From an uncultured Clostridia bacterium (lineage in GTDB: Bacteria > Bacillota > Clostridia > Christensenellales > UBA1750): a stretch of DNA of 64,000 bases. The DNA is taken from contig CANQPP010000006.1 of assembly GCA_947625765.1 (NCBI GenBank), forward strand, positions 8,810-72,809, read 5' to 3'. The position numbers and the translations under genes are program-made. Positions 395-64,000 of the stretch are shown here, in pieces. Within the stretch, counting starts at the first letter, position 1, and the number at the start of each line of letters is the position of its first letter. The notes beneath the pieces are model-generated. The model saw nothing but the letters and a program-made list of their open reading frames with translations. It made no database searches and had not been told where the DNA came from.

Positions 395-409
395 GGGTGG
401 AGGGATTCT

Positions 410-2529: not shown

Positions 2530-2535
2530 ACACCC

Positions 2536-3822: not shown

Positions 3823-3896
3823 ATGTCCTGGAATACATTATTCCCACCGACATTCTGAATGTTGCCCTTCGTAAAGGGGAAGGATCAATATCATTC

Positions 3897-5354: not shown

Positions 5355-5546
5355 TCTGCCCTTTCAAAACAAGTTGGCCTGAATTAATGTTTCTTCTCTC
5401 CACAGTGGTAGATAGAATGCTATATTTAATGATTCGGTGTATCAATACATCATCAGATACCCTTTGAATCACGATCATTTAATCGGTTATTTCGCTACGC
5501 ACCCTAACACGAAATTGGACGTGTCTACAAGAAACGAGGTGCTACT

Positions 5547-6709
5547 TTGGACCTGATAAAAAACATTATTCGTCAACAAGCAGAAAAAATTCTGTCGAAT
5601 CAAAAAGCTGAAAGAAATGCAGAATTTTCATTTTTGCAAGCGGTAGCAATTTTGATGGTGGTACTTAGCCATAACAAAAGTGCCATCGGTCTGTTTGATG
5701 ATTGGTTTTGGTATTCCTCTTTTTACATGCAGCTATTTGTATTTATTTCTGGATATTTCTTTAATTTTGCGGGGGGGGGTATAGAAATTTCATTCTCTAC
5801 AAAGCAAAAAGATTGCTAGTTCCATACTATGGATGGAATCTTATATATGGTTTGGTTATAACCGTTTTGAGGCATTTCCAGATTGTGAAATATGGTGAAT
5901 CGCTGACGCTTTACAACTATCTAATTAAACCGTGGACCTTGGGAGATCAATTTGCATTCAATCGCGCTGCCTGGTTTGTTTTATCACTTTTTCTTGTTCA
6001 AGCAGTTTATGCTGGTCTATTCCTGAGTTTAAGGAAAATTCCAGTTTTTCGAGATCGACTTCTTCTGATTTTACTGATCAGCTTGAATTTCGCAACGGTA
6101 TTTTACTGCGACAATCATTCTGAGACACTTAGCGGTTTTCAATATACTTTCGGAAAACTGTTCTTTCTTTTGCCCTTTTATCATTTTGGTGTGCTGTTTA
6201 AAAAGCACGAAAGAAAGATAAAGTTTCGCCCTATCATTTTCCTTTCTGTGATTTTCACGGCACAGTTCTTCCTTTGGTGTACATACAAAGGCCAAGGTAT
6301 GGGCGTTTGGGAATGCGCTTTTCGACTCGGGAACCCATTTGCCCCATTGTTGATATCGCTTCCGGGGATCTGCTTTTGGTTATGTATTGCAAAACTGCTT
6401 CGCCCCGCATATGAAAACAGTAAGATAGTATGCTATATTGGTAAAAACACTTCAACGATCATGACACATCACCCAATAGCGTTCTTTGCCTGCAATTGTA
6501 TCATTTTGTGCTGTTCTAAGCTCTTCTCTTTGGGAAGCTTCGATACAGAAGCATTTAAAACAAATATATGGTATACCTATCTTCCAGATGGCAATTTTCG
6601 ATTTGCACTCATTTATGTTGTAATAGCGATTGCTGTACCACTGTTAATAAAATACTCAGTTGAGCAAACGACTATATGGATTTCCAGACATATAAAACAA
6701 AGCAGTTGA
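5547..6709 (+). pseudogene. Acyltransferase-3 family O-acyltransferase, split into two ORFs (5547-5819 and 5780/5813-6709) at a G9 tract
   Basis: The upstream ORF has AVAILMVVLSHN and FVFISGYFF (acyltransferase-3 N-terminal motifs). After the G run the homologous reading continues in the other frame as YRNFILYKAKRLLVPYYGWNLIYG, followed by about 10 further hydrophobic segments. Confidence 0.75.
5771..5779. repeat. G9 homopolymer inside the acyltransferase coding sequence
   Basis: Direct read: ttaattttgc-ggggggggg-tatagaa. It is the only G run of this length seen in the window and lies in AT-rich DNA. Confidence 0.95.
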
Positions 6710-6872
6710 GAAGTATATCTTGCTTTGAGGTAGGATGTGGTTTCTCAATGACAGACTCGCGGATTTATATACTCAAACAAAACCCACGATTATCTTTTAT
6801 AAGGATAAGGATTATATAGCGATACATAAACATTGAAATGCTCAAAAATTGGGGGAGCAAATAGCATAAGTT

Positions 6873-6908
6873 TGGCCACCGGTTCTGAATAAAACAGGGC
6901 CGGTGGCC
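6873..6908 (+). terminator. Hairpin at the right edge of the low-GC island
   Basis: ggccaccggttctg-aataaaa-cagggccggtggcc, an imperfect 14-bp stem. It lies 160 bp after the acyltransferase stop, where base composition changes. Confidence 0.5.
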
Positions 6909-7162
6909 TATCTTTACTCTGGCAGATTTTATGGGCGCAGTGAAAACAGTGAATATGTTTGGCTTCGTGCAAACCGTCCCTTCCCCCACAAGGTCTCTAT
7001 CTCCTCTGCCCCTCACATCGATCCTTTTTCTATCTTTTTATACAGAGCGTTTCCCTTGCCCCGCCCCCTCTTTTCTGGTATGATGTGGGAAAAGAAGCCG
7101 TTTTTCTCCTTTTTTCCCTTTCCCTCTTTTCCCCCTTCTCCCCAATAAGGAGCGTGGCAGAA

Positions 7163-11806: not shown

Positions 11807-12202
11807 TTAACTTCTCATCGACTGAAATTCATCCTGGAGCAGCCCATACAAACACAGGTCCGCCCAATTCCCCTCGTTGTTTTTACCTGACTTCTCTGTA
11901 TCCCCCTCGCGCTTCATGCCCAGCTTTTCCATCCATCCGACCGACTTCACGCCGTCGACGGCTTCCGTGGCCACCTTATGCAGCTTCAAGTCGCAAAAGC
12001 AGTATTCCATGACCGCGGCGCAGGCCTCATGCGCAAGACCCTTGCGCCAATAGTTTCGATCAAAGGACTAGCCGATCTCATACACACCCTCGTCCAGCGG
12101 CTTAAACAGGATGTAGCCAATGACTTTGCCCGTATGTTTCAGGGCCGCCGCGAGCGCGCCTTTCTGTTCCCAAGGGGCATGCAGCGTCTCGACAAACGGG
12201 AA
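11807..12202 (-). pseudogene. RimJ/RimL-type GNAT acetyltransferase remnant, 5'-truncated and with an in-frame TAG
   Basis: The minus-strand frame reads FPFVETLHAPWEQKGALAAALKHTGKVIGYILFKPLDEGVYEIG-TAG(12070..12068)-SFDRNYWRKGLAHEACAAVMEYCFCDLKLHKVATEAVDGVKSVGWMEKLGMKREG. There is no start codon, and a TAA lies at 12205..12203. Confidence 0.7.
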
Positions 12203-12222
12203 TTATCGCTCTTTATATGCGT

Positions 12223-12759
12223 TTATCCTAAAGACTGAAGCGATGGATTATACATCCCAAATCCCAATTCCTCGATCAATCGCATATATTCCTTCTCGTC
12301 AAAAGCCGACCCTGTCGAGATGATATCGTAACATCCGCTGTCATCGATCAATCTGAACGGCACCTTATGAAACCCGTTCCGTTCATAAAATGCAAATCGG
12401 CGGATGCGCTGGCCTTCATTTTCAGCATTAAAACCTATCGGTTCAATATTTCCAACTATCGACTTATCGGAATACATCTTCATCAGCCATTGGATCAGCT
12501 CTGCCCCATACCCTTTAGAACGCACTTCCGCGGGTACGGCAAGATAAAACAAATAAAGCATCGTTTCGCCGACATTGTAAAAAAGGATCCCGCAAAGCTG
12601 TTCTCCTTTCCAAAAAGACTTATATTCTATATGATCTGATCCCGATAATCTCAGGAGCTCCTCCATTGAAAAACTTTCCTCTGGAGGAAATGCCGTCATC
12701 TGCAACTCTCTAACAGCGTCATAGTGTGGCATTTCCTTTTTTACATCTTCACACTTCAT
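12223..12759 (-). CDS. GNAT family N-acetyltransferase, sitting in a low-GC patch
   Basis: AVPAEVRSKGYGAELIQWLMKMY (acetyl-CoA motif) and FYERNGF. The surrounding roughly 12203-12850 is visibly AT-rich. Confidence 0.8.
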   Translation of the reverse strand: MKCEDVKKEMPHYDAVRELQMTAFPPEESFSMEELLRLSGSDHIEYKSFWKGEQLCGILFYNVGETMLYLFYLAVPAEVRSKGYGAELIQWLMKMYSDKSIVGNIEPIGFNAENEGQRIRRFAFYERNGFHKVPFRLIDDSGCYDIISTGSAFDEKEYMRLIEELGFGMYNPSLQSLG

Positions 12760-12957
12760 AGCTTCCTCCGAAAACTTCGATTTGTCGAACAGCCGCCCGC
12801 TCGGCGCCTAACACTCATTATACCGCCCCAATACAAAGAAATCCACTGCTCCTTATGACGGCCGGAATTTCCTTTCCGTTCCCATCCATATCGAGTAAAA
12901 AAACGAGCGCAAGCGGCATGCTGTTTTTTTGCCCCGCCCGCGTCCCGCCTTTTTCCC

Positions 12958-13812
12958 TCACCGGCTCTCCTTGGCGTAGCCCTCCTCCACCCAGTCCAGC
13001 ACCTCCTCAGTCGTTAAGCTCCCCGCGCGGTTCAGGCGGCCCAGCTGGTACAGGCTCTCCGGGTCCCGCTCAAGCAGGTTCACATAGGGCTCGCTGTTCA
13101 TGGTCGCGCGGAAGCCGTTCTCCTTGAGGATCGCCTCCGCGCCCGGCTCCACCTGCCCATAGGGGTAGGCAAAGCCCGGCAGGAGGCGCAGCCCCTCCCG
13201 CTTGGCCCAGACCTCCATCGCCCAGATGTCCCTCTCCAGCAGGGCACGGTAGTCCGCCTCGCTCTCCCCTTCCAGCCTGCGCGCGCCGTGCCTCTGCCCG
13301 TAGAGGTGCAGGGAAAAGCTGTGGCTCTGCAGCTCGATCCCCTCGTAAAGACAGAGCTCCCGCAGCGTCTGCGCGTCCATGGCCTCCGTTTCCGTCATCT
13401 CTCCCGAGGAAAAGCCGCCCACCACCGACAGCACCGCCTTCATCCCATATTTCTGCAAAACGGGCAAAGCGTTCTGTGCAAAGCCCGGCGCGCCGTCGTC
13501 GAATGTGAGCAGGATCGGCTTTTCCGGCAGGCTCCCCTTGCCGTCCACGAAGTCCATGAGCTGTGCGAGCGACACCGTCTCATAACCCCTCTCCGCAAGG
13601 GCCTTGAGGTCGTCCTCCAGCGTCTCCGCGGTCACCGCGTACTCCCCCGTTTCCGCCTCCGTCACGCTGTGGTACAGCAGCACGGGCAGGCGCAGCTCCT
13701 CCTTCCTTGCCCCAGCCTTCAAGAGCGCGGGCAGCAGCAGCGCCGTCATCGCGGCCAGCACGAACAGGTAGAACGCCATGCCCGCGTAACCCTTCTTTTC
13801 TCCAAGCAGCAT
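12958..13812 (-). CDS. Polysaccharide deacetylase (NodB/CE4 family) with an N-terminal membrane anchor
   Basis: LLTFDDG motif and histidine motifs (LQSHSFSLH). A hydrophobic N-terminal segment FYLFVLAAMTALLLPALL is present. It lies immediately downstream of the GT2 synthase. Confidence 0.85.
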   Translation of the reverse strand: MLLGEKKGYAGMAFYLFVLAAMTALLLPALLKAGARKEELRLPVLLYHSVTEAETGEYAVTAETLEDDLKALAERGYETVSLAQLMDFVDGKGSLPEKPILLTFDDGAPGFAQNALPVLQKYGMKAVLSVVGGFSSGEMTETEAMDAQTLRELCLYEGIELQSHSFSLHLYGQRHGARRLEGESEADYRALLERDIWAMEVWAKREGLRLLPGFAYPYGQVEPGAEAILKENGFRATMNSEPYVNLLERDPESLYQLGRLNRAGSLTTEEVLDWVEEGYAKESR

Positions 13813-30563: not shown

Positions 30564-30662
30564 AAGTCAAAACCTCCTAAGGCGGGGCGTAAATGACCCT
30601 ATAACCCTTTGTATTTTACCACAGGGGAAGCAGAAAGTAAACGCACAAAGCCGTCCTTTCGG

Positions 30663-31136
30663 CTTTTCTTATGAAAAGTCTTTGGGAAAATCCGCCTCGT
30701 TCGGGCCGAAGCGCCCCTTGGGCGGCGGTCCCGGCGCGTCTTTTCCCGCGGCCGCTTTCGTCATTTGAGGAAAGGGAAGCGCGGCGGCGGGCTTTTCTTC
30801 CGAAAATGCCATAGGAAAAACCGCCTCGTTCTGGCCAAAGAGCCCGTTTTCACCTCTCGGTGCCGCTGGAACACCTTGGCCGTTTCCAAAAAGACCGCCC
30901 TGCTGCTGGTCTTTCTTTTGAACTTCTTTGATAAAAACCGTCTCATTCGGGCCGGAGCGCCCCTTGGACGGCGGTCCCGGCGCGTCTTTCCCCACGGCCG
31001 CTTCCGTCATTTGAGGAAAGGGGAGCGCGGCGCGGGCGTTTCTTCTAAGAATGTCTTAAGGAAAACCGCCTCGTTTGGGCTAAAGCGCCCGCTTTCACCG
31101 CTCTCAACGTCTTGCGCGGCGGCTCCGGGCGGCTCT
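30663..31136. repeat. Tandem duplication of about 247 bp containing four related sub-repeats
   Basis: Sub-repeat heads lie at 30663, 30792, 30911 and 31038 (CTTTTCTT-N-GAAAA...GGAAAA-CCGCCTCGTT-GGGCC-AAGCGCC). The roughly 95-nt stretches 30696-30790 and 30943-31037 are nearly identical. Confidence 0.7.
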
Positions 31137-31838
31137 TTACTTGCCTTCCCTCTTGATGGCCTCCGTCATCTGCGCCAGGAACGCGCGGTTGCCGGGCTTG
31201 CCCTTTTCCGGCGGCACCGTGTAGCCGAAGAACAGGTGCAGGGCGGAGAGCTTTCCGTAGCGCCAGGCATGCTCGATTGCGTAGCGGATGTCCCGCTCCA
31301 CGCTTTCCGGGCGCACGCCCTTCTCTCGGGCGATGGGCCCATACACCCGAGCGCGCAGGTCCCGCAGGCGCTCCCCGTCCTGCAAACAGAGGCACAGCGC
31401 CCGCTCGATGTACTCCCTTCCCCGCAGGTGCGTAGAAAAGCCCATCTCCTGCAGGCGCTCGGCCATGCGCCGGGCGGTGGGGCCGTCGATCTGTCTTCTT
31501 CCCACAAGGTCCAAACAGGCGAAGGCCTCCTCCCAGCCTTCGCCCACCAGCGCCCCCGCAAGGGGCAGAGAGCCCCTGTCCATGCCCCTGGGCGCGCACA
31601 GCACCAGAGCGGGCGCGCCGGGCAGGGCCAGCTCGCCCAAGCGGGACAGGACCGCCGCGCCGTCTAAGAGGGGCAGCACCAGCTCACACAGGAGCGCGTC
31701 GGGCCGCTCCCGCCGGGCCTGTTCCAGCAGCTGCCTGCCGTCCAGGCAGCCGCCCAGCACGAAGCAGCCCCGCTCCCGGGCCAGCGCCTCCGCCCTTTGC
31801 AGGCTCTCCTTCCGCGCGCAGCCGATCAGCAGATCCAT
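31137..31838 (-). CDS. spo0A: Spo0A-family transcription factor with a degenerate (pseudo-)receiver domain
   Basis: The C-terminal half matches the Spo0A DNA-binding domain (HLRGREYIERAL...ESVERDIRYAIEHAWRYG...LFFGYTVPPEKGKPGNRAFLAQMTEAI). The N-terminal half aligns to a receiver, but LLCELVLPLLDG replaces L(L/V)LDIIMPxLDG. The acidic pair, the Thr and the Lys are also absent. Confidence 0.85.
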   Translation of the reverse strand: MDLLIGCARKESLQRAEALARERGCFVLGGCLDGRQLLEQARRERPDALLCELVLPLLDGAAVLSRLGELALPGAPALVLCAPRGMDRGSLPLAGALVGEGWEEAFACLDLVGRRQIDGPTARRMAERLQEMGFSTHLRGREYIERALCLCLQDGERLRDLRARVYGPIAREKGVRPESVERDIRYAIEHAWRYGKLSALHLFFGYTVPPEKGKPGNRAFLAQMTEAIKREGK

Positions 31839-31917
31839 CCCTTTTCCCCCTTCCGGCTATCATTCCAAAAGGGTTTTCTGCGCCCATCCCCCGTTTTCCT
31901 GCCGCGAAAAAGGGCGT

Positions 31918-32046
31918 TTATTGCGCCTCCAGCATCCAGTCGATGAACACGCCGTAGCCGCGCAGCGGGTCGTTGACGAACACGTGCGTCACCGCACCCA
32001 CCAAATACCCGTCCTGTATAATGGGGCTGCCGGACACGGCTGTGTC
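31918..32046 (-). pseudogene. spoIVB: 3'-terminal remnant of the spoIVB (S55 peptidase) gene
   Basis: Hand translation of the minus strand gives [42 protein letters not shown]-stop. This matches the SpoIVB C-terminus around the catalytic serine (GMSGSPII...[14 protein letters not shown]). There is no upstream coding continuation, and it lies 80 bp upstream of spo0A as in canonical synteny. Confidence 0.75.
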
Positions 32047-33604
32047 AATATAGGGACAACAACTTTCCCATCTCGTCCCGGAAGTTCCACTCGATGCGCA
32101 ACTCCCCTTCCTCCCCGATCACGATCCTGCGGATCATCTCGTGGGTCAGCGCCGGCGTCAGCGTTTGGACGGGTCGGCAGCGCGTGTCCGTTTCCGGGGC
32201 GGCCTGTTCCCCTCGCGCCCCCTTTTCCAGCTCCTTTTCCAGCAGTTCCAGTTTGAGCTTCATCGGCTCCGCATCCTTAGTCAGCGCCGCCTTGGCAGCG
32301 GAAAATTCCTCCCGGCTCAACTGCCCGCCCGCGTACTGTTCGTACAGGCGCAGCTTTTCTTCCTCTTTCCGTTCGATCCGCCGCCGGAGGGAGATACATT
32401 CCGCCCGCAGCTTGCCAAGCTCTCCCTTCCCCCGCCCCGCCCGCGGCAGCTCCGCTTCCAACAGCTGCATCTGCGCGTTCAGCGCCCGCAGCACCACCTT
32501 TTTGAGCTTTTCCTCGTCGGCCCGCACGCGGGCGCAGCCGCTGTCCGGGGCGTAGCGGCGGGTGCCGCACAGCCAGTACCGGCTCTGCGGCCTGCCCTTG
32601 GTCAGCCGCTTGCCGCAGCAGCCGCAGACGAGCAGGGAGGTAAACGGTCCCGCCTGCGCCGTCGGTGGAGACTTGCGCTTAGAGCGCACCGCCGCGCGGG
32701 CCCTTGCGAACGTCTCCCGGCTCACGATACCCTCGTGGGTGTTCGGGATGAGCTGCCTCTCCGCCTCCGGGACGGGCCGCAGCCTGCCGCTGCCCACCTT
32801 GCACACGTGCGAGCGGAAGGGCACCGTGTCGCCCGTGTAGGTCCTGTTTTCCAGTATGTTGCGGACGGACTCGTAGTTCCACACCGGCTGCACCCTGTAC
32901 CGACCCCGCACGGCGGCAAGGTACGCGGACGGCGTGGCCGTGCCGCTCTCGTTGAGCCGCCGGGCGATCTGCGTGATCGGCACGCCCTGTTCGGCCCAGG
33001 CGAAAATCTTCCGCACCACGGCGGCCGCGGGCCTGTCCACGACGATGCTGTTCTTCTTTTCCCCCTTCTTGTAGCCGTAGGGCACGGCCCCGAAGGCGTA
33101 TTCCCCGCCCAGCTTCTTTAAGTCCACCGCGCTGCGGATCTTTCTCGAGAGGTCGCGGCTGTACATCTGGTTGAGCAGGTTGCGCACGGCCAGCTCCAGC
33201 CCGCCCGTGCCGCCGTCCAGTGCCCTGGTGTCGAAGCGGTCGTTGACGGAGATGAAGCGCACATTATAAAGGGGAAACACGAGCTCCAGATACCGCCCCG
33301 CCTCTATATAATTGCGGGCAAAGCGCGAAAGGTCGCGCACCACGACCGTCCCCACCTTCCCCGCCTCGACCAGCTGCAGGAGGGACCGCATGCCGGGCCT
33401 GTCCATGCTGGTGCCGGAGGCCCCGTCGTCCACGATCTCCCGGAAGGAGCAGACGTCCAGCCCTTCCTCCTCCAGAAAGCGGCGGATGCAGGCCCGCTGG
33501 GAGGCGATGCTGCAGCTCTCGCCCGCATCGCCGTCCTCTTTTGATAGGCGCAGGTACACGATCCCCATCCGTTCAGTCGGCATGGCTCTCCTCTTCTCCC
33601 GCAT
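32045..33604 (-). CDS. Large serine recombinase (third of three)
   Basis: Resolvase domain ([11 protein letters not shown]...[30 protein letters not shown]). It also has a recombinase domain, a zinc ribbon (CGCCGKRLT...WLCGTRRY) and a coiled coil. The start is uncertain: 33604, 33583 or 33568. Confidence 0.9.
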
Positions 33605-35279
33605 TCAGCGCTTCCAGCTCCCGGAAGGGGTCGCGGCCGCGCAGCACGATGCGGATCGAGCGGTCTTTCCTTACCTCGATCCGCTCCACCAACAGGTCGA
33701 GCAAGCCGCGGTCGAGCCGGGGCAGAAGCCTGTATTCCCGCAGCCGCGCCGCCCATTCCCGCGCTTTTTTGAGCGTCACCTTTTCCGCCTTCATTTTTTC
33801 CTCCGCTTCCCTTTCTTCCCGCTGGGCTTCCGTCAGCTGCGCCTTATATCTTCCCTTCATGTAGATGTACTCGTCCCGGTCGATCACGCCCCGGGCCGCG
33901 TCCGCAAGCAGCCCCTCGAGCCTCGCCTCTATGCGCTCTTTCTTGGCCGCAAGGCCCGCCCGCGCCGTCTCGCCCGCGCGTCTGCGGGCAACCTGTCCGC
34001 GCTCGATCTCCTCAAGCAGGCGGTCAACATCCGCAAACAGGCGCAGCTGCACGTCCAGCTGGCCCTTCACCCGCTCGTGTAGCCTGTCCTGCCGCAGGTA
34101 GTGGCAGGCGCAGGCCGCCCCCTGGCTGCGGCGGTAGGCCGCGCACTCGAAGAAGATGTGGCTCTGCCCTTTGGAGCCCGCCCGCGCGCAGCCCTTGGCC
34201 GCGAGCATCGGCGCGCCGCAGTCCGCGCAGAACACCTTGCCGCGGAACAGTTCGCGGTCCTCCTGCCCGCAGCCGGGCCTCGCCCGGAAGTTTTCCCGTT
34301 TCGCCCGCCGTTCGGCGGCCACGCTCTGCGCCTTCTCGAACAGCTCCTCCGGCACGATGGCCGGGTGCGCCGCCTCGATCACCCGCCATTCGGCTTTTTC
34401 CCTTTGCCTCTTGGGCAGGCCGACACGCTCCCGGCCAAATTTGCCGTGGATGCGCTTTCCCGTGTACACCGGGTCGGAGAGCAGCTTCTGCACGGTCTCC
34501 CGCCGCCACAGCGCCGCCTCGTATTTAGGCGCCTTCGTCAGGCCCCGCAGGAAGCGCAGTCGCCCCGGGCAGGGAACGCCTTCCCCGTTGAGCACGCGCG
34601 AGATCTGGCCATAGCTTGCCCCCTCTGCCCGCATGGCGAACATCCGCAGGACCACCGGCGCGGCCTCCCCGTCCACGCGGTAGCTCGCCTTCTCCGGGTC
34701 GCGCAGGTAGCCGTAGGGCACGCTGCCGGAGGCGGGCAGGAACTCCCCCTTCTCCATCCTCGCCGAGATGCTGGAGCGCACCTTGCGGGAGATGTCCTTC
34801 ACGTAGTGGTCGTTCATCACCATCCTGAGCGGCAGCGTGAGAGCCTGGGCATCCGCGCCCTTTGCGGCGCTGTCGTAGCCGTCGTTGATGCTTATAAAGC
34901 GCACGTTCAGGGCGGGAAAGACCCGCTCCACGAGCCGCGCCGTCCGCGAAAAGTGGCGGCCCAGGCGGGAGACGTCCTTGACCAGCACGCAGCGGATTTG
35001 CCCCGCCCGTATGTCCTCCATCAGCCGCAAAAGATCCGGCCGGTCGTACCGCAGGCCGCTCCAGCCGCTGTCCGTATAGAAGTCATGCAGCTGAAGCTCC
35101 GGGTGCTCCATGAGGTAGGCGCGGGCGATCTTCTTCTGGCTGCCGATGGAGTTCTGTTCCTCATCGTCCCCGTCCTCCACCGAAAGGCGGGCGTACACTG
35201 CCGTCGGGACGGCTTTTTCGGGAAACTCTTTCCAAAACTCCGGCCTTTCCGGCCCCGTTCTCCTGCTCTTTCTCGCCAT
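33573..35279 (-). CDS. Large serine recombinase (second of three)
   Basis: VYARLSVEDGDD...SIGSQ, DSGWSGLRYDRPD, VLVKDVSRLGRH. Zinc ribbon CADCGAPMLAA...FFECAAY and a coiled-coil tail. Its ATG directly abuts the stop of the upstream recombinase. Confidence 0.9.
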   Translation of the reverse strand: MARKSRRTGPERPEFWKEFPEKAVPTAVYARLSVEDGDDEEQNSIGSQKKIARAYLMEHPELQLHDFYTDSGWSGLRYDRPDLLRLMEDIRAGQIRCVLVKDVSRLGRHFSRTARLVERVFPALNVRFISINDGYDSAAKGADAQALTLPLRMVMNDHYVKDISRKVRSSISARMEKGEFLPASGSVPYGYLRDPEKASYRVDGEAAPVVLRMFAMRAEGASYGQISRVLNGEGVPCPGRLRFLRGLTKAPKYEAALWRRETVQKLLSDPVYTGKRIHGKFGRERVGLPKRQREKAEWRVIEAAHPAIVPEELFEKAQSVAAERRAKRENFRARPGCGQEDRELFRGKVFCADCGAPMLAAKGCARAGSKGQSHIFFECAAYRRSQGAACACHYLRQDRLHERVKGQLDVQLRLFADVDRLLEEIERGQVARRRAGETARAGLAAKKERIEARLEGLLADAARGVIDRDEYIYMKGRYKAQLTEAQREEREAEEKMKAEKVTLKKAREWAARLREYRLLPRLDRGLLDLLVERIEVRKDRSIRIVLRGRDPFRELEALNAGEEESHAD

Positions 35280-36914
35280 CTAACCCGCCTCCCCGGCCCG
35301 GATCGTCCGCCTAAGCAGCTCCAGCTCGTCCCTGTAATTGAACTCCACCCGTACGCGCTTGCCCTCATACACATACACCTTGTTGATGAGCGTGGCCACC
35401 GCCTCGCGGCTCAGCTCCCGCAGTCCGCGGAACTTTAGGTACTGTTCCAGAAAGCCGCCCGCGCTGCTTGCGGACAAAAGCGCCTGCCTTTCCTCCTGCA
35501 GTCTGCGCTTTTCCGCCTCCGCCCGCTCGATGCGCGCGCCGTACTTTTGCCGCATCGCCGCGTATTCCTCCCGGTCGATGAGGGCATCTTGCAGGGCCTC
35601 GTACAGCCCCATGCGGAACTCCCTGTCCTTCTCGATCTCCCTTTCCTTTTGTTCCAGCTGCCTGTCCATCCACAGCGCGCGCATCTCATTGAAGTCCTGC
35701 ACGCCCAGCTTTTCGGCCAGCATTTCCGTTTCCGAAACCAGGTCCAGCTGCCCCTGCACAGCATGCAGCACCACCGCCTCCAGCCTGTCCTGGGCAAAGC
35801 TGTGGCTGCTGCAGCCCCTGCCCGCCTTGTGGCCGGAGCAGACGTAATAGTGGAACGTCTTGCCGCCGCGCTTAACGCTCCGCCTGAGCATGGAGCTGCC
35901 GCAGTCCGCGCAGAACAGCACCCCCGCCAGCGGCAGCACCCGCTTTTCCTCCGGCGGCCTGCGCGTATCGCGGGCAAGCAGCTCCTGCACCACGGCAAAC
36001 AGTAGCGGATCGACGATGGCCGGGTGGTTGTTGGGCACGCTGACCCACTGTGCCGGGTCGCGCTCCACCACCGTCTTGATCTTGTAGTTGGGCGTCCCGC
36101 GCCTGCCCTGCACCAAAGTGCCTATGTAGACGGGGTCCTTCAGGATGCGCTCGACCGTCACCGCCGACCAGAGGGGCGTCTCCCGCCTCTGGAAGCCGCT
36201 CTGGTAGCGGAGGGCGTTTGATTTTTTGTACGCAGCGGGCGAGGGGATCCCCCTCTCGTTCAGCCACGCCGCGATGGCGCTCTGGCTGTACCCTTCCAGC
36301 TTCATGGAAAACACGGCCCGCACCACGCCCGCGGCGCCCTCGTCGATCTCCAGCCTGTGCTTGTCCTCCTTGGACTTTTTGTAGCCGTAGCGGGCGAAGG
36401 CGCCTAAGAACTCGCCATTTGCGCGCTGCACGCGGAACTGGCTGCGCAGCTTCTTGGACAGCTCGCGGCAGTAGGATTCGTTCATGATGTTCTTGATGGG
36501 GATGAGCAGCTCGTCCCCGGCGGAACCGCGCTCGCTGTCCACGTCGTCGTTGATGGCGATAAAGCGCACGCCCAGGGACGGGAAGATCATCTCCAGATAC
36601 TTGCCCGTCTCGATGTACTCCCTGCCCAGGCGGGAGAGGTCCTTGACGATCACGCAGTCGATCCGCTTCTCTCTCGCCGCCTCCAGCACAGAACAAAAGC
36701 CGGGACGATCGTAGTTCGTTCCGGTGTAGCCGTCGTCGCAGGCCTCCCCTTCCAGCTCGATCTCCGGGTGCCTTTTGACGTACTCTAAGATCAGCTTGCG
36801 CTGATTTGCGATACTGTCGCTCTCATGCCCCGCGCCCGTCTCCCGGGACAGGCGGTAATACGCCATGGCGCGGTAGGTCTTTTTCCCCTGTTCTCCTGCT
36901 TTGCTCTCTGCCAT
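35280..36914 (-). CDS. Large serine recombinase (first of three)
   Basis: AYYRLSRETG...SIANQ, DDGYTGTNYDRPG, VIVKDLSRLGRE. Zinc ribbon CADCGSSMLRR...YYVCSGH. The start is the ATG at 36914 behind AAGGAGG; the ORF extends to 36971. Confidence 0.9.
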   Translation of the reverse strand: MAESKAGEQGKKTYRAMAYYRLSRETGAGHESDSIANQRKLILEYVKRHPEIELEGEACDDGYTGTNYDRPGFCSVLEAAREKRIDCVIVKDLSRLGREYIETGKYLEMIFPSLGVRFIAINDDVDSERGSAGDELLIPIKNIMNESYCRELSKKLRSQFRVQRANGEFLGAFARYGYKKSKEDKHRLEIDEGAAGVVRAVFSMKLEGYSQSAIAAWLNERGIPSPAAYKKSNALRYQSGFQRRETPLWSAVTVERILKDPVYIGTLVQGRRGTPNYKIKTVVERDPAQWVSVPNNHPAIVDPLLFAVVQELLARDTRRPPEEKRVLPLAGVLFCADCGSSMLRRSVKRGGKTFHYYVCSGHKAGRGCSSHSFAQDRLEAVVLHAVQGQLDLVSETEMLAEKLGVQDFNEMRALWMDRQLEQKEREIEKDREFRMGLYEALQDALIDREEYAAMRQKYGARIERAEAEKRRLQEERQALLSASSAGGFLEQYLKFRGLRELSREAVATLINKVYVYEGKRVRVEFNYRDELELLRRTIRAGEAG

Positions 36915-37044
36915 AAAAGCCAAACCTCCTTGAAATCCAGTTCTATTCTCAAGGGGCTCTGCCTCCGGCATCCGTCCTCATCGACCACATACAAAAAAGT
37001 ATGCCTCCCTGCGGCCTTCCCTGTCAATAACGCAAGACGAATTG

Positions 37045-37290
37045 TCACAAATTCCCAGCGGGCCCGGACAGGCTGCGGGCGTAGGAGAGGAGCCTGTCCT
37101 GCAGCGTGACGGAGGTGTCCGCATAGCCGATCTCCACCACCACGCCGTCGTCCAGGTAGCGGTAGGGGTCGCCGATCTGCCTTATGTAATCCCGCAGCCG
37201 CTCCTCCCGCGGGCGGCTTACATCGATCGAAACGTCCCGTATGTCGCGGAGTTCTGCCCTGTCAAGCGCCCGCGTTCCATCCTTCTCCAT
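37045..37290 (-). CDS. Small hypothetical protein leading the recombinase gene string
   Basis: 81 aa. A strong RBS (GGAAGGAGG) lies 8 nt upstream of the ATG. It has the same orientation as the recombinases and sits 130 bp upstream of the first one. Confidence 0.6.
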   Translation of the reverse strand: MEKDGTRALDRAELRDIRDVSIDVSRPREERLRDYIRQIGDPYRYLDDGVVVEIGYADTSVTLQDRLLSYARSLSGPAGNL

Positions 37291-37366
37291 GTCCCTTTCC
37301 TCCTTCCATTCTCTGGATAGGATGGACGCCTTTCCCTCCGCCTATGCGGGGTACAGGCATGCGAAA

Positions 37367-37402
37367 AGCCGCCGGACCCGTTTTTTTAGGTCCGGCGGCT
37401 TC
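37367..37402 (-). terminator. Rho-independent terminator after the PHP-domain gene
   Basis: aagccgccggacc-loop-ggtccggcggctt, a 13-bp perfect stem with a T-run on the minus strand. Confidence 0.7.
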
Positions 37403-37430
37403 GTGCCGTTTGTGTTTTAGAGAGTTTGTC

Positions 37431-38360
37431 TTAGTCCTTCAGGAAGATGGGGTTGCTCCAGGCGCGGCGGCCCTGCTCGTCCACGATGGTCACGCGGATG
37501 TAGTCGAACTCCACGGGCATCTTGAACTCGTGGTGGGTCACCGGCTCGCCCTCGGTGCGCAGTATGCGGCAGGGCCAGCGGCCGTAGCGGAAGGCGATCT
37601 CCTTGATGGGGGAGCACTCCACGTGCGCCACGCCATCCTCCACGTAGAAGTCGTAGATCTCCGGCCCGCAGCTGGAATAGAACGCGCCGCTCTCCAGCGC
37701 CGCCAAAACGGCGTCCACGTTCTTTTCGGCGTTCACCCGCACCCAGCCGTTGCAGTGGTGCGGCCTGTCGTGCCCGTCGTCCACGGCCACGCCCCACCAG
37801 CGCTTGCCCTGCATGAGGATCTCGTCCCAGTAGGCGGCGTTCATGTCCAGGCCGTCCTCCAGCGCGCAGCCGCTGTTCCAGATCTCCATGCCGAAATAGC
37901 CCTCGATGTTCTCAAAGTCGCGGGCGGGGGTCGCGCTCCACTCGGGATGGCAGTAGAAGGTGAGGTTGTTCTTCCGCTTGATCTCGTCGATCAGGGGCTG
38001 GAAGCTCTTCCAGCCTTCGGTCAGCTTCACGGACTCGGGCCGCTCGTCCTGCTCAAAGCCGTTGCCCTTGTCCTTCTCGGGGCCGATGCACACGCTGTGC
38101 AGGCAGTGGATGCCCACGTCCGGGAAGCCGCCGTCCACCTCCATGCCGGGGATGAGCAGCACGCCGGTCTCGGGGGCGTAGTTGACGTAGTTGTAGTTGC
38201 GGTGGTCGGTCAGGGCCAGAAAATCATACCCGTTTTCCGCGTGGTAGCGGATGGTGTCCTCCGGGGACATGCGGCCGTCGGAGCGGGTGGTGTGGCAGTG
38301 CAGGCCGCCCTTGAGCAGCTTGCGGCCCGGTTGCTGGAAGGCCTGTTGGCGGATCAGCAT
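37431..38360 (-). CDS. PHP-domain metal-dependent phosphoesterase family protein
   Basis: GGLHCHTTRSDG (HxH motif), ALTDHRNY, and later His/Asp ligands (CHPEW, DDGHD). Confidence 0.8.
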   Translation of the reverse strand: MLIRQQAFQQPGRKLLKGGLHCHTTRSDGRMSPEDTIRYHAENGYDFLALTDHRNYNYVNYAPETGVLLIPGMEVDGGFPDVGIHCLHSVCIGPEKDKGNGFEQDERPESVKLTEGWKSFQPLIDEIKRKNNLTFYCHPEWSATPARDFENIEGYFGMEIWNSGCALEDGLDMNAAYWDEILMQGKRWWGVAVDDGHDRPHHCNGWVRVNAEKNVDAVLAALESGAFYSSCGPEIYDFYVEDGVAHVECSPIKEIAFRYGRWPCRILRTEGEPVTHHEFKMPVEFDYIRVTIVDEQGRRAWSNPIFLKD

Positions 38361-41006: not shown

Positions 41007-42404
41007 ATGCAGAAGATCAGACGCAAACCAAAACTGAACGACTCGCTCAACAACATCACCGAGGGCGTGCTCTGGAAGCAGATGCTGCTCTACTTCTTCC
41101 CCATCCTGCTGGGCACCTTCTTCCAGCAGCTGTACAACACGGTGGACGCCGTGATCGTGGGCAACTTCGTGGGCACGCAGGCGCTGGCCGCCGTGGGCGG
41201 CGGCACCGGCACGGTGATCAACCTGCTCGTGGGCTTCTTCGTGGGCCTGTCCTCGGGCGCCACGGTCATCATCGCCCAGTTCTACGGGGCCGGCAAGCAG
41301 AAGGAGACCAGCGACGCGGTGCACACCTCCATCGCCCTGGCCATCTACGGCGGCCTGCTGTTGACGGTGGTGGGCCTGGCCATCTCCCGTTTCAGCCTGC
41401 GCCTGCTGGGCACGCCGCAGGAGATCGTGAACGACTCCCTCACCTATATGCGCATCTACTTCGCAGGCACGGTGTTCTCCCTCATCTACAACATCGGCTC
41501 CGGCGTGCTGCGCGCCGTGGGCGACTCCAAGCGCCCCTTGTATTTCCTCATCGTCTGCTCCCTGACGAACCTCGTGCTGGACCTGGTGTTCGTGCTCTTC
41601 TTTCGCTTAGGCGTGATGGGCGTGGCCCTTGCCACCATACTCTCCCAGGCCGTGAGCGCAGTTTTGGTGCTGGTCACCCTCATGCGCAGCGAGGCCAGCT
41701 TCAAGCTCTACTGGCGGCGCATCCGCCTGCACTTTCACCTCCTTAACCGCATCGTGACCATCGGCCTGCCCGCGGGCCTGCAGTCGGTGATGTACTCCGT
41801 CTCCAACCTCATCATCCAGGCCTCGGTCAACTCCTTCGGCACCAACACCATGGCCGCCTGGACCGCCTACAGCAAGCTGGACGGCCTGTTCTGGATGATC
41901 ATGGGCGCCTTCGGCGTCACGGTCACCACCTTCGTGGGCCAGAACTTCGGCGCCCGCAAGTACGACCGCATGAAGCAGAGCGTGAGGACCGGCCTGTGGA
42001 TGGCCTTCGGCTCCTCCATCGCCGCCAGCGCGCTGGTGCTGCTGCTGGGCCGCTACGCCCTGAGCCTGTTCACCCACGACGCGGACGTCATCCCCATCGG
42101 GATGCAGATCGTGCGCACGATCATCCCCTTCTACTTCACCTACGTGTGCATCGAGCTGCTCTCCGGCGCCATGCGCGGCACCGGCGAATCCTTCATCCCC
42201 ATGCTCATGACCTGCTTCGGCATCTGCGTGATGCGCGTTGTGTGGATCTTCGTGGTGGTGCCCCGCTTCAACACCATCTCCGTGGTGGCCGCCAGCTACC
42301 CCATCACCTGGGCCGTCACGTCGGTCATGTTCATCATCTACTACCTCTCCGGCCGCTGGCTCAAGAAGCACGTGCCGAAGGAGGACTTGGAGCTCATCAA
42401 GTAA
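41007..42404 (+). CDS. MATE-family efflux transporter
   Basis: 465 aa, 12 TM. N-terminal LWKQMLLYFFPILLGTFFQQLYNTVDAVIVGNFVG is typical of MATE/NorM proteins. Confidence 0.9.
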   Translation: MQKIRRKPKLNDSLNNITEGVLWKQMLLYFFPILLGTFFQQLYNTVDAVIVGNFVGTQALAAVGGGTGTVINLLVGFFVGLSSGATVIIAQFYGAGKQKETSDAVHTSIALAIYGGLLLTVVGLAISRFSLRLLGTPQEIVNDSLTYMRIYFAGTVFSLIYNIGSGVLRAVGDSKRPLYFLIVCSLTNLVLDLVFVLFFRLGVMGVALATILSQAVSAVLVLVTLMRSEASFKLYWRRIRLHFHLLNRIVTIGLPAGLQSVMYSVSNLIIQASVNSFGTNTMAAWTAYSKLDGLFWMIMGAFGVTVTTFVGQNFGARKYDRMKQSVRTGLWMAFGSSIAASALVLLLGRYALSLFTHDADVIPIGMQIVRTIIPFYFTYVCIELLSGAMRGTGESFIPMLMTCFGICVMRVVWIFVVVPRFNTISVVAASYPITWAVTSVMFIIYYLSGRWLKKHVPKEDLELIK

Positions 42405-60089: not shown

Positions 60090-61169
60090 CTATACCTCCC
60101 GCACCGTGCCGTTTTCCACGAAGAAGGCCTTGCCCGTGGGCCAGCCCTTTTCCGCCTCCGTGGCCGTGACGAACGTCTGGGCGGGCAGGGCGCGCTCCAT
60201 CAGGTACTGCCTGCGGCTCTCGTCCAGCTCGCTCATCACGTCGTCCAGCATCAGCACCGGCCAGCTGCCCGTCTCGTCCCGGAGCAGCTGCAGCTGGCTG
60301 AGCTTTAAGGACAGCGCCGCTGTGCGCTGCTGCCCCTGGGAGCCGAAGGCGCGCAGCTCCTTGCCGCCGATCAGCAGCCCCAGGTCGTCCCTGTGGGGCC
60401 CGGCGGTGGTGGTGCACAGGCGCAGATCCTCGCTGCGCTTCTTTTCCAAAAGGCGCAGGGCGGTCTCGGCGTCGTCCGCCTGCAGGTTGGGCCTGTATTC
60501 CAGCTCCAGCAGCTCTGTGCCGCCGGAGATGTCGCTGTGGTTCTCGTGGGCGTACACCTGCAGCTTCTTCACAAAGCCCGCCCGCTCCCGGCAGATGTAG
60601 GCCGCAAGACGGGCCAGCTGCTCGTCCCAGACGGGTAGCGTATCCAAAAGGGAGGGATCGTCCCGCAGGGCACGGAGCAGGTTGTTGCGCTGGCGCAGCA
60701 CGCGGTTGTACTGCTGCAAAGAGTAAAAGTAGCTGGGGTAGGTCTGGGAAAGCTCCATGTCCAGGAAGCGCCGCCGCTCGGCGGGGCCGTCCTTGACGAT
60801 GGAGAGGTGCTCCGGGGCGAACAGCACGCAGTTGAGCCTGCCCATCAGCTCGCCTAAGCGCTGCACGGGCTCACCGTCCAGCAGGATGCGGTGGCGGCCC
60901 TCGCTCAGGAGGTTATAGCGGATGCGCCGCCTGACGCCCGCCCGCTCGCAGTGCAGCTCCACGGCGGCGTGCTCGCAGCCGTAGCGGATCATCTCCCGCT
61001 CCCGGGGCGTGCGGTGGGAGCGGCCCAGGCAGCAAAGAAAGACCGCCTCCAGCAGATTCGTCTTCCCCTGGGCGTTCTGCCCGAAGATCAGATTGATCCC
61101 CGGGCAGGGTTCGAGGGAAGCCTCTTCATAGTTGCGGAAGCGGCTCAATTCCAATTTTGTGATGTTCAT
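60090..61169 (-). CDS. recF: DNA replication/repair protein RecF
   Basis: LSRFRNYEE, Walker A GQNAQGKTNLLEA, and an SMC-type signature (SQGQQRT) with Walker B LMLDDVMSELD. Confidence 0.95.
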   Translation of the reverse strand: MNITKLELSRFRNYEEASLEPCPGINLIFGQNAQGKTNLLEAVFLCCLGRSHRTPREREMIRYGCEHAAVELHCERAGVRRRIRYNLLSEGRHRILLDGEPVQRLGELMGRLNCVLFAPEHLSIVKDGPAERRRFLDMELSQTYPSYFYSLQQYNRVLRQRNNLLRALRDDPSLLDTLPVWDEQLARLAAYICRERAGFVKKLQVYAHENHSDISGGTELLELEYRPNLQADDAETALRLLEKKRSEDLRLCTTTAGPHRDDLGLLIGGKELRAFGSQGQQRTAALSLKLSQLQLLRDETGSWPVLMLDDVMSELDESRRQYLMERALPAQTFVTATEAEKGWPTGKAFFVENGTVREV

Positions 61170-62278
61170 ACACCCTGGAAGGTGCGCACGGGCAGCACCA
61201 GATAGAGGAAGCTGTCCCCCTCCTCGGGCACGATCACGGCCGGGGAGATGGAGGTGTTGAAGCGGAACAGCACCTTCTCCTCCGCCAGGGAGCGGATGGC
61301 GTCGGTGATGTAGTTGACGTTGAAGGAGATGTCGATGTCCTGCCCCTGGGTCACCGCGTCGATCTGCTCGAACACGTCGCCCATCTCGGAGTTGGAGCTG
61401 ATGGAGAGGCTGTCGCCCTTGATGGAGAACTTGAGCAGGTTGTTGCGGCCCTCCTTGGCCATCAGGGAGGCGCGGTCGATGCTCTCGCTCAAGGCGGCGC
61501 GGTCCAGCAGAACGGAGGTCTGGTACTGGGCGGGCAGCAGCTGGCGGTACTTGATGTATTCCCCGTCCATGCGGGAGACCACGATCTTGCAGCCGTCCTT
61601 CTCCATGGAAACGTGCTTCTCCCCCAAGCGCAGGGCCACCTCGTCGTCGCTGTCGCTCAAAATGCGGCCGATCTCCGCCCAGTAGCGGCCGGAGACCACG
61701 CAGGAGATGCTCCCCTCGCAGGGGGCGGCCAGCTGTCCGCGGCGCAGGGCCAGGCGGAAGCCGTCCAGTGCCACCATGGTCGCCTGCTCGCCGGAGACCT
61801 CGAAGAGGCAGCCGGTGAGGATGGGGCGCGTGGCGTCCTGGGCGATGGCAAAGCCGGTCTGGCGGATCATGTCCTTGAGCAGGTTCTGGGAAATATGCAC
61901 CTCCTCGCCGTCGTCCACGGCGGGCAGGCTGGGATAGAGGGATGCGTCCATGCCCTGCAGGGTCGTCTTGATCTTGGGCATGCGGATGGTGGCGGTAAAG
62001 CGGTCGCTGACCTCCACGGAGACCTCGCCCTCGGGCAGCTTGCGCACGATCTCCGGGAACAGGCGGCCGGGGAGCAGCACGCTGCCCTCCTCCTGCACGG
62101 TGCCGGGGATCAGCGCCTCGATGCCTAGGCTCTGGTCGGTGCCCGCCAGGCGGACCCCGCCGGCCCAGGCTTGCAGGAACACGTTCTCGTACATGGGGTT
62201 GGGGCTGCGCTGGGCGACGGCGCGGCTGACGGTCTGCAGCGCCGTGAACAGGTCCTCTCTTTCACAAAGGAAACGCAT
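61166..62278 (-). CDS. dnaN: DNA polymerase III beta sliding clamp
   Basis: MRFLCEREDLFTALQTVSRAV...NPMYENVFL, the typical DnaN N-terminus; about 370 aa. The ATG at 62278 lies 9 nt after GGAGGA; the ORF extends to 62287. Confidence 0.95.
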   Translation of the reverse strand: MRFLCEREDLFTALQTVSRAVAQRSPNPMYENVFLQAWAGGVRLAGTDQSLGIEALIPGTVQEEGSVLLPGRLFPEIVRKLPEGEVSVEVSDRFTATIRMPKIKTTLQGMDASLYPSLPAVDDGEEVHISQNLLKDMIRQTGFAIAQDATRPILTGCLFEVSGEQATMVALDGFRLALRRGQLAAPCEGSISCVVSGRYWAEIGRILSDSDDEVALRLGEKHVSMEKDGCKIVVSRMDGEYIKYRQLLPAQYQTSVLLDRAALSESIDRASLMAKEGRNNLLKFSIKGDSLSISSNSEMGDVFEQIDAVTQGQDIDISFNVNYITDAIRSLAEEKVLFRFNTSISPAVIVPEEGDSFLYLVLPVRTFQGV

Positions 62279-62350
62279 GGGTGCCATTCCTCCTTATACT
62301 CATAAACTCTCTGTCGTGCGGATGTTTCTATATTATTAAGTGATGGGGCT

Positions 62351-63697
62351 TTAAGCGCCCTCGATGCGGCGGCGGATGTCCTCCACGGCCCTGCGGGTGT
62401 CGGCGTCGTGCTTTAGGTCCCCCTCCACCTTTTCCACCGCGTGCATCACGGTGGTGTGGTCGCGGCCGCCGAACTCCTGGCCGATGCGGGGCAGGGACGC
62501 GCCGTTGAGCTCGCGGCAGAGGTACATGGCCGTCTGCCTGGGCACGGAGACCTCGCGGTTGCGCTTCTTGGACTTGATGTCGTCCACGGACACGCCGTAG
62601 TATTCGGCCACCACGGCGGTGATCATGTCGATGGTGGCGCGGCGGGGATCCTTGACGGAGAACATCTCCGCCAGGGCTTCCTTGGCAAGGTCCAGGCTCA
62701 GGGGCTGGCCGCCTAAGCGGGCCTTGGCCAGGACGCGGTTCAGGGACCCCTCCAGCTCGCGGATGTTGGACTCGATCTTGGAGGCGATGAAGAGGTTGAC
62801 CTCCTCGGGGACCACCACCTGTTCCTGCTCGGCCTTGCGGCGCAGGATGGCGATGCGGGTCTCCAGATCGGGCTTGGTGATGTCCGCGATCAGGCCCCAC
62901 TCGAAGCGGGAGCGCAGCCGCTCCTCCAGCGTGGGGATCTCCTTGGGCTGCTTATCGGAGGAGAGTATGATCTGCCGCCCGGACTCGTAGAGGGCGTTGA
63001 ACGTGTGGAAGAACTCCTCCTGCATGCTCTCCTTGCCGGCGATGAACTGTATGTCGTCCACCATCAGCAGGTCCACCGAGCGGAAGCGGTTGCGGAACTC
63101 GGAGGTGCGGTTGGTCTGTATGGCGGTGATCAGCTCGTTGACGAAGTTCTCGGAGGTGATGTAGAGCACCCGCGCATTGGGGTCGCGCTCTAAGATGGCG
63201 TGGCCCACGGCGTGCATCAAATGGGTCTTGCCAAGGCCCACGCCGCTGTACAGAAACAGCGGGTTGTAGGCCGCCGCGGGGCTCTCCGCCACGGCGATGG
63301 CCGCCGCGTGGGCAAAGCGGTTGGAGGAGCCCACCACGAAGCTGTCGAACGTGTAGCGGGGGTTGAGCTGGCACAAGGGGCTTCTCTCCGCCTCGCGTGT
63401 CTCGGCCGCGCTCTCCTTCGGCTTGCGGTCGATCGCGGCCAGCTCCGCGGGCGTCAGCACGCGCAGGCGCACGTCCTCCCCGGCCGCGCGGCGAAGCGCC
63501 GCCTGGCTAAGGCCTAAGTACCGCTCCTCCAGCATGCGGGCCTGAAAGTCGTCCCGCGTGCTCAGCAGCAGCTCCCCGCCCGCATACTCCACGGGCAGGG
63601 TGCCCTCGAACCAGGCCTCGAAGGCCATGTCCGACACCTGGGCGCGAATGAGCTGCAGCGCATAGGACCACAGCGAGCTGGCGTCCATTTTCTCCAT
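62351..63697 (-). CDS. dnaA: Chromosomal replication initiator protein DnaA
   Basis: AAA+ Walker [13 protein letters not shown], Walker [10 protein letters not shown], and a domain IV signature ([11 protein letters not shown]). Confidence 0.97.
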
Positions 63698-64000
63698 CCC
63701 GGTCTACCGCTCCTCCCATCGGCGCAAAAGGGCGGTCTCCTCCGCGCCGCTTATCTTGTCATACATCTGAAGATCGGAAAGGGCTCTGCGTCCCTTTCTC
63801 TTGATCCGGCGGTTCCCAAACAGCCTGTCGCACATGCCTTTCGTGAAAAGCAAGCGCGCCTATCGGCGCGCTTGCTGAAGGTGGGCCATCCGCCGCTTAT
63901 TATGATACCAAAAAGGGGGCTCCCTTTCAAGGGCGCGAAAAGCGCGTATCGCGGGATTTGGGAGCCGCTTTCCAAAAAATGAAGGCGAAGCAGGGATTTC

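Follow-up and report, generated by a model that had tools for sequence, protein, structure and literature searches.

The 64-kb stretch of DNA analysed here (hereafter the window), from an uncultured Clostridia bacterium, carries four open reading frames (ORFs) on the minus strand between 32045 and 37290, namely a DUF6870 gene and three intact large serine recombinase (LSR) genes. They are flanked on one side by a housekeeping PHP-domain gene and on the other by the final 38 codons of spoIVB, after which comes a spo0A homologue. The segment is best explained as the stranded integration/excision module, together with the right attachment site (attR), of a split integrative element that targets spoIVB, a reading to which a probability of about 0.68 is given. 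Under this explanation, a family of elements would insert into spoIVB at a TG dinucleotide, with DUF6870 and an internal-middle-external LSR triplet forming the integration/excision module. A chromosomal rearrangement would have broken the element just upstream of DUF6870, parting the module from the element body and leaving the spoIVB 5' part and the left arm elsewhere, and this break would predate the divergence of the sampled strains. The three recombinases, intact and constrained, could still recombine attR with a partner site; given a distant left attachment site (attL), such an event would yield a large chromosomal inversion or deletion instead of a small excised circle.

The attR junction and the recombinase module

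The features of the segment, all on the minus strand, are as follows.

31918..32034, minus strand: orphan spoIVB 3' end of 38 codons, from the catalytic-serine codon TCC to the stop (tblastn and structure alignment)
32035..32062, minus strand: attR, made up of the P arm at 32037-32062 (TTGTTGTCCCTATATTGACACAGCCG) and the crossover TG at 32035-32036 (empty-site comparison)
32045..33583, minus strand: SR-C, external LSR, 512 amino acids (aa) from the family start (Pfam triad)
33573..35279, minus strand: SR-B, middle LSR, 568 aa (Pfam triad)
35280..36914, minus strand: SR-A, internal LSR, 544 aa (Resolvase, Recombinase and Zn_ribbon_recom domains)
36998..37027, minus strand: sigma-70-like promoter TTGACA-18-CATACT between DUF6870 and SR-A (scan call)
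37045..37290, minus strand: DUF6870 gene, 81 aa, first gene of the conserved module (Pfam PF21757, E 6e-25)
37364..37399, minus strand: intrinsic terminator of the PHP gene, GCCGCCGGACC-loop-GGGTCCGGCGGC-TTTT, the left limit of element DNA (read from the sequence)

Past the stop codon of SR-C the minus strand reads GTTGTCCCTATATTGACACAGCCG-TG-TCCGGCAGCCCC and continues into the SpoIVB C-terminus; the last codons of SR-C extend into the P arm and the gene ends 9 nucleotides (nt) short of the crossover into spoIVB. The spoIVB junction reported in the initial annotation is thus real, as the translation of minus strand 32034-31921 matches residues 280-317 of the Bacillus subtilis SpoIVB structure (9lnf_A, E 2e-13), and this 3' remnant was the sole match when full-length SpoIVB proteins were compared with the window by tblastn. 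The window contains neither a spoIVB 5' part nor a second (P') arm, leaving attR as its sole att junction. Comparison of the spoIVB-spo0A locus among relatives, to which the same annotation had pointed, revealed an empty site in the closest relative found (locus L024), with an intact spoIVB of 426 aa beside spo0A in the gene order MatE, spoIVB, spo0A, pepP and efp. The EF-P, PepP and Spo0A proteins of this relative are 99%, 77% and 58% identical to those of the window, and its SpoIVB shares 77.5% identity with the remnant in a 40-residue tblastn alignment (32040-31921, including two P-arm codons). In a second empty site (L028) the upstream neighbour of spoIVB is a pseudouridine synthase gene, where L024 has MatE.

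When the empty site of L024 is aligned to the window, similarity begins at TG-TCC. The crossover TG represents the last two bases of the Met codon directly ahead of the catalytic-serine codon, and insertion therefore severs the active-site serine and the last 38 residues from the protein. The attB of the L024 type reads GGCATCGTGCAGGGCA-TG-TCCGGCAGCCCC, a natural site within a conserved gene, and the att arms form a 26-nt inverted-repeat pair around TG. The attR of the window recurs as an identical junction in an independent metagenome contig (L012), while the 20-nt P-arm core GTTGTCCCTATATTGACACA is identical in a related element (L001) and occurs once in the window, with 0 occurrences expected by chance.

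The three paralogous recombinases and the 81-aa ORF described in the initial annotation were confirmed as ORFs and by their Pfam domains. SR-A, SR-B and SR-C each exceed the Pfam curated cut-offs for PF00239, PF07508 and PF13408, with the domains in the order typical of LSRs, and match PHROG 95 'integrase' (E 1e-84 to 1e-102). The catalytic-serine motif Y.RLS..D...ES.SI..Q is kept in all three, and Y.RLS together with (V/L)SR(L/F)(G/A)R is present in these proteins and in every aligned orthologue, as judged by eye against homologues rather than with a curated active-site model; the inactivated catalytic residues considered at the outset were thus not observed. The coiled coil ascribed to each protein looks plausible by eye. 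The start codon of SR-A is an ATG preceded by an AAGGAGG ribosome-binding site, with an alternative in-frame ATG at 36971 that would give 563 aa. SR-B starts directly after the SR-A stop codon, so that the zero spacing first described for this pair stands, but the 32-nt overlap described for SR-B and SR-C does not: it arises only with the ATG at 33604 (519 aa), whereas all homologues and database entry P0001 (512 aa) start at the methionine of MP.EK, located at 33583 in the window, which gives an overlap of 11 nt as in all homologues.

Aside from these four ORFs, no coding content was found between the PHP terminator (37364-37399) and the spoIVB remnant, in keeping with the earlier observation that no cargo lies between the recombinases and the housekeeping genes. 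The host-like GC content was likewise upheld, with values of 0.61-0.70 overall and 0.84-0.87 at third codon positions. The promoter at 36998..37027 is the sole promoter-like call in a scan of 30900-37600, and TTGAC(A/T)-17-ATAAT(A/G) boxes occur at the equivalent position in two related elements (L001 and L017). A consensus scan called no minus-strand terminator between SR-C and spo0A, as the initial annotation had also reported, and Rfam and tRNA scans of the window returned no matches. The gene position of DUF6870 makes its product a candidate accessory or directionality factor; it has no PHROG or NCBIfam match, and its AlphaFold prediction, computed without an alignment, has a pLDDT of 48.

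Compared with the recombinases in the same position of other trios, SR-A shows 58-62%, SR-B 47-51% and SR-C 52-59% identity, while identity across positions is 28-34%, such that the paralogues cluster as internal, middle and external types. More than 1,400 relatives of SR-C were found at E < 1e-20, the closest non-self protein being 59% identical.

The left boundary and the element family

The change from element DNA to the terminator of the PHP gene occurs approximately 70 nt upstream of DUF6870, and the sequence just 3' of the terminator T-tract starts to show weak homology to what lies upstream of DUF6870 in other elements. As the terminator at 37364 bounds the element DNA, the breakpoint lies at about 37363 or below. 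A motif resembling a B' arm (TCCGGCGGC) occurs within this terminator and was taken as a chance match, having no P or P' arm adjacent to it. Beyond the PHP gene, towards higher coordinates, the main identified genes are, in order, HIT, mtaB, rsmE, MATE (opposite strand), sbcCD, dnaJ, dnaK, grpE, hrcA, dnaN and dnaA; the genes upstream of the module are core chromosome near the replication origin and not cargo.

It is very improbable that the left junction is an assembly artefact in which a chimeric contig fused the element to the PHP locus. The DNA probably stems from a metagenome-assembled genome, a low-coverage contig (L013) stops inside the terminator hairpin, and a Logan contig of another element (L018) switches flank inside DUF6870, all of which would suit such an artefact. 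The same junction is, however, crossed colinearly in diverged sister strains by L267 (7.4 kb), L268 and L269, independent contigs from other sequencing runs (DRR855143, DRR855141 and ERZ27249610), at 94.6-96.4% identity and with the hairpin conserved, and L012 confirms the attR side. The misassembly raised as a concern in the initial annotation is thus contradicted by three independent contigs. The flank switch in L018 is an observation in its own right: at position 6345 its trio, which is the same as that of L017 (99.4% identity), acquires a wholly different upstream flank from 48 nt inside DUF6870, a difference due to a genuine rearrangement or to chimerism of the Logan contig.

A candidate for the missing portion of the element is the protein P0284, which comprises SpoIVB residues 1-386 (74% identical to L024), ends in ...GGIVQGM and continues into an unrelated tail. 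Back-translation of this tail yields an in-register inverted repeat of the P arm of the window, with agreement at 22/30 positions as opposed to 9-16 at other shifts. Given that P0284 is a single NCBI-only sequence, unindexed like the window proteins, and that it shows the expected divergence and a matching arm, it probably represents the other half, encoded in the same genome on a separate 53.9-kb contig of the same assembly. The existence of this fusion of the SpoIVB 5' part with a left arm makes the element look split, not deleted. Of the three options offered in the initial annotation, the stump of a deleted element came closest, as the trios of relatives lie at the edge of large elements, but P0284 suggests that the element was split rather than deleted.

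In every related locus fetched, the order DUF6870, SR-A, SR-B and SR-C is retained and the module ends at the same spoIVB TG. DUF6870 lies directly 5' of the trio in L001, L002-5, L006-10, L017, L019-22 and L267, and a 3' fragment of spoIVB comes after the trio in L001, L002-5, L006-11, L017 and L023. SR-C adjoins the spoIVB remnant in L001 and L006, as in the window, and is separated from it by one extra gene in L002 and L017. Upstream of DUF6870, L002-5 and L017 contain Tn916-like sigma70_r4_2/HTH_16 genes, a ParM-like gene, a toxin-antitoxin pair and DUF3854; the stretches of relatives available for inspection (6-10 kb) revealed no relaxase, coupling protein or VirB4.

An attL pattern derived from P0284 (spoIVB 5' part plus inverted-repeat arm) was scanned against metagenomes, and 92 of the 118 matches are true spoIVB-5'/P' junctions. 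A near-identical left end is common to 80 of these 92, representing one element (L163 and 79 other loci) that derives mostly from human gut metagenomes and is found in at least two different host spoIVB alleles; its left 14 kb hold genes for a two-component system and for large dockerin/Big_2 surface proteins. A stop codon directly follows the Met codon in nearly all of the 91 attL junctions examined, while P0284 runs on into its unrelated tail. In nearly all left-junction loci the trio lies beyond the 10-14 kb available from attL, and the intact elements must therefore be large. Intact family members are thus much larger than 5 kb, and the spoIVB-targeting family is common in gut Clostridia.

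Several family members have a derived structure. A 1.2-kb contig (L225, 560-960) contains a gene-free miniature derivative of ~210 nt in spoIVB with both arms intact and ~190 nt apart, in which the quasi-palindromic arms around TG are seen within one contiguous sequence; this miniature element is presumably mobilisable in trans. L006 (11808-15795; also L007-L009) has two P-arm/spoIVB-3' copies, ~90% identical, flanking a 3.7-kb cassette in an attR-cassette-attR array, the cassette coding for a 337-aa protein, an AAA_15 ATPase, a 175-aa protein and an HD protein. The idea, prompted by L006, that elements carry a replacement spoIVB 3' end is not supported in general by the attL junctions. In L195 (1335-6144) the trio is inverted, directly beside attL and in an orientation opposite to the target, and L256 (5851-6855) contains a truncated SR-A remnant, 64% identical to SR-A of the window, within another family element. 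MT836038, a 'phage' record with the trio, proved to be a bacterial scaffold with the usual attR, and the 120 matches to a 14-base P-arm pattern in viral contigs are chance matches, none of them with a recombinase or SpoIVB.

Where the P arm (..TTGACACAnnnS; window 32037-32062) is joined via TG to the P' arm (TGAGTGTGTTATAAT..; L225 624-650 and the attL loci), the joint reads TTGACA-17 nt-TATAAT, and the same joint results from the P arm of the window and the back-translated P0284 tail. Judging from these sequences, any family member, once excised as a circle, would have a consensus sigma-70 promoter spanning the joint and aimed into the left end of the element.

Against this background it is hardly credible that the 5.3-kb unit is a complete, recombinase-only mobile element, the minimal self-mobilising unit of the initial annotation. 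There are no other genes between its two boundaries, and, as the gene-free miniature derivatives show, att arms can persist by themselves. A complete insertion, however, needs both halves of its target, and here only one att junction is present, with no spoIVB 5' part or second arm within 64 kb; on the left the unit borders on a terminator that belongs to an unrelated gene, with no P' arm, and DUF6870 is internal to the element in relatives, not terminal.

Selection on the recombinases and the nature of the proposed break

Relative to the sister strain L267, dN/dS is 0.19 for SR-A (dS 0.15) and 0.28 for SR-B (over the 256 available codons), as compared with 0.06 for the host gene PHP and 0.11 for MtaB. 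The recombinases thus appear to have been constrained since the strains diverged, that is, after the break, because the window and L267 share the post-split junction. With the locus ~25 kb from dnaA, the simplest form of the break would be an inversion that had one of its breakpoints upstream of DUF6870 and preserved gene orientation.

A number of observations weigh against a stranded module produced in this manner. The module shows ~94% nucleotide identity to the sister strain and is thus more diverged than its flanks (96.7-99.9%), and its low dN/dS could mean that a function has been kept or that related elements arriving in the genome have converted its genes; a dead fragment would in any case not be expected to show purifying selection once split off. 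The same-genome origin of P0284 is deduced from a protein sequence rather than from DNA. An inversion, a translocation, or a deletion in one strain mixed with an intact strain fit the data equally. Finally, the label of integrative and conjugative element (ICE) for the family derives from its Tn916-like regulatory genes, and no conjugation genes were seen in relatives.

In one alternative the trio is a domesticated rearrangement switch. The host would have kept the three recombinases, with DUF6870 perhaps serving as directionality factor, as a means of separating and reuniting the spoIVB parts via attR and a distant attL, probably through a large inversion near the replication origin, and sporulation competence would be toggled or reconstituted during development. 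In two strains with a common post-split junction the recombinases have stayed intact under purifying selection, attR is intact, and both spoIVB parts are uninterrupted frames at ordinary divergence (74% and 77.5% identity to L024, as compared with 77% for PepP). There is also precedent for recombinase-mediated reconstitution of sporulation genes in skin, SPbeta and gin (PMC4191935, PMC5595907). Nevertheless, the window has no attL, low dN/dS could have arisen through gene conversion by related mobile elements, and the degenerate receiver of the adjacent Spo0A homologue hints at an altered or lost sporulation pathway. In addition, the forespore is where spoIVB is expressed in B. subtilis. A rearrangement in that compartment would pass to the progeny, whereas all described cases are mother-cell events (PMC4191935). 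A domesticated switch is accordingly considered unlikely, and it is similarly doubtful that the trio and a directionality factor (possibly DUF6870) reversibly break and restore spoIVB by an origin-proximal inversion as a heritable on/off control of sporulation.

A plain deletion, which would have removed the element body, attL and the spoIVB 5' part, is also rather improbable. P0284 would then come from another strain or organism and the species would be spoIVB-negative. In accordance with this, no spoIVB 5' part occurs within 64 kb, the receiver domain of Spo0A is degenerate, and decay products are common in the family, including the miniature L225, the SR-A remnant L256 and the cassette between two attR sites in L006. 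P0284, however, shows the divergence expected for the species and a matching left arm, and the recombinases are under purifying selection and show no decay. Furthermore, the upstream neighbours of spoIVB vary among relatives (MatE in L024, pseudouridine synthase in L028), and there is therefore no sign that PHP ever adjoined spoIVB. The split of a spoIVB-targeting element, with its module left behind beside attR, remains the preferred explanation.

Several further features of the window surround this locus. The Spo0A homologue (31137-31838, minus strand) has a good Spo0A_C domain and a degenerate, shortened receiver domain that scores 24 bits against a Pfam cut-off of 30; in this receiver the N-terminal acidic pair and the beta4-beta5 region are absent and the phospho-acceptor Asp is replaced by Glu (LLCELVLP). 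The Spo0A receivers of L024 and L028 score weakly too, but keep the phospho-acceptor Asp. A scan of genome contigs with the Spo0A homologue as a single protein retrieved only three unrelated actinobacterial and acidobacterial loci. The interval between spo0A and pepP (30658-31103) contains two to three direct-repeat copies of 117-246 nt with 81-87% identity, where L024 has only a 123-nt spacer. The MATE gene of the window (41007-42404, opposite strand) was considered as an inverted orthologue of L024 MatE; it is probably a paralogue, as the two share 38% identity compared with 77-99% for true orthologues.

The dnaA and dnaN genes are located at 61166-63703 (minus strand), followed by a HAD-like gene and hrcA-grpE-dnaK-dnaJ in place of the usual recF-gyrB-gyrA. 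GC skew is negative throughout, placing the module on the leading strand ~25 kb from the origin region. At the other end, window positions 1-7000 form a low-GC island (39-46%, compared with ~63%) whose genes (epimerase/dehydratase-like, glycosyltransferase, O-antigen-polymerase-like, flippase-like and acyltransferase-like) have the look of polysaccharide biosynthesis and export, and which was probably acquired horizontally. A second dip in GC content (49%) occurs at 12001-13000.

Significance and comparison with known systems

SpoIVB is a signalling protease that is needed in B. subtilis to activate the late mother-cell sigma factor. If the proposed explanation is true, insertion at the catalytic serine of spoIVB by a common element family would amount to a widespread and reversible loss of sporulation in gut Clostridia, which bears on the transmission and persistence of gut anaerobes. 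With its att sites defined, the family would also offer a three-recombinase system in which to test why a trio is required by some elements. Judging from the copy in the window, a module of this kind can survive after its element has broken up and remain under selection next to spo0A, so that capture by the host becomes a possibility. Among the papers searched there was none with both spoIVB and attB, and none joining spoIVB and 'serine recombinase' with 'intervening' or 'integrated'. Triplet serine integrases (PMC4701971) and LSR elements interrupting sporulation genes (PMC5595907, PMC4191935) are already known; what differs here is the spoIVB target cut at its catalytic serine, the DUF6870 partner and the detached yet constrained module beside spo0A.

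A close parallel in arrangement is found in the streptococcal ICEs of the Tn1806 type, which carry triplets of serine integrases at the element ends (Ambroset et al. 2016, PMC4701971). In both systems three co-oriented tandem LSR genes occupy one extremity and the paralogues cluster by position, insertion is site-specific within a protein-coding gene with a very short repeat, and some elements have extra genes between trio and target, here L002 and L017 (PMC4701971). The tandem co-orientation and the position-wise orthology bear out the initial comparison of the trio with the triplet type known from ICEs. The likeness described is one of arrangement. Here the target is spoIVB, not mutT, traG or hsdM, the elements occur in gut Clostridia, the trio has a conserved DUF6870 gene ahead of it, and the module of the window is detached from its element body. 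A linked conjugation module, which would mark ICE membership, is absent from the window, where housekeeping genes follow.

Among solved structures, the N-terminal catalytic domain of SR-A best matches TnpX of Tn4451 (2mhc_A, E 8e-26), and SR-C is ~31% identical to annotated TndX, the recombinase of Tn5397, across 97% of its length. Tn5397 also has Tn916-like sigma70_r4_2 and HTH_16 genes upstream, like the relatives described here. The TndX and TnpX elements, in contrast, have a single recombinase and other target sites, where three recombinases occur here.

Like the present family, skin (SpoIVCA), SPbeta (SprA/SprB) and gin (GirA/B/C and GirX) are LSR-bearing elements that interrupt a sporulation gene at a defined att site. 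The gin element in gerE is 28.6 kb long and has three serine recombinase genes and no phage genes, but girAB and girC do not form a tandem trio and only GirC together with GirX acts (PMC5595907). In these systems the element lies between both gene halves and is excised in the mother cell, whereas here the two parts of spoIVB lie apart, the window has the 3' remnant alone, and the target is a gene that is forespore-expressed in B. subtilis. The ccrAB/ccrC genes of the staphylococcal cassette chromosome (SCC) offer a further parallel, in that several LSR genes in one operon mobilise a cassette and tandem accretion occurs at one att site, as in L006. The present module differs from SCC in having three genes, not two, and a different target, and the SR proteins score 45-90 bits against the NCBIfam CcrA/B/C models, well below their cut-offs of 700-900.

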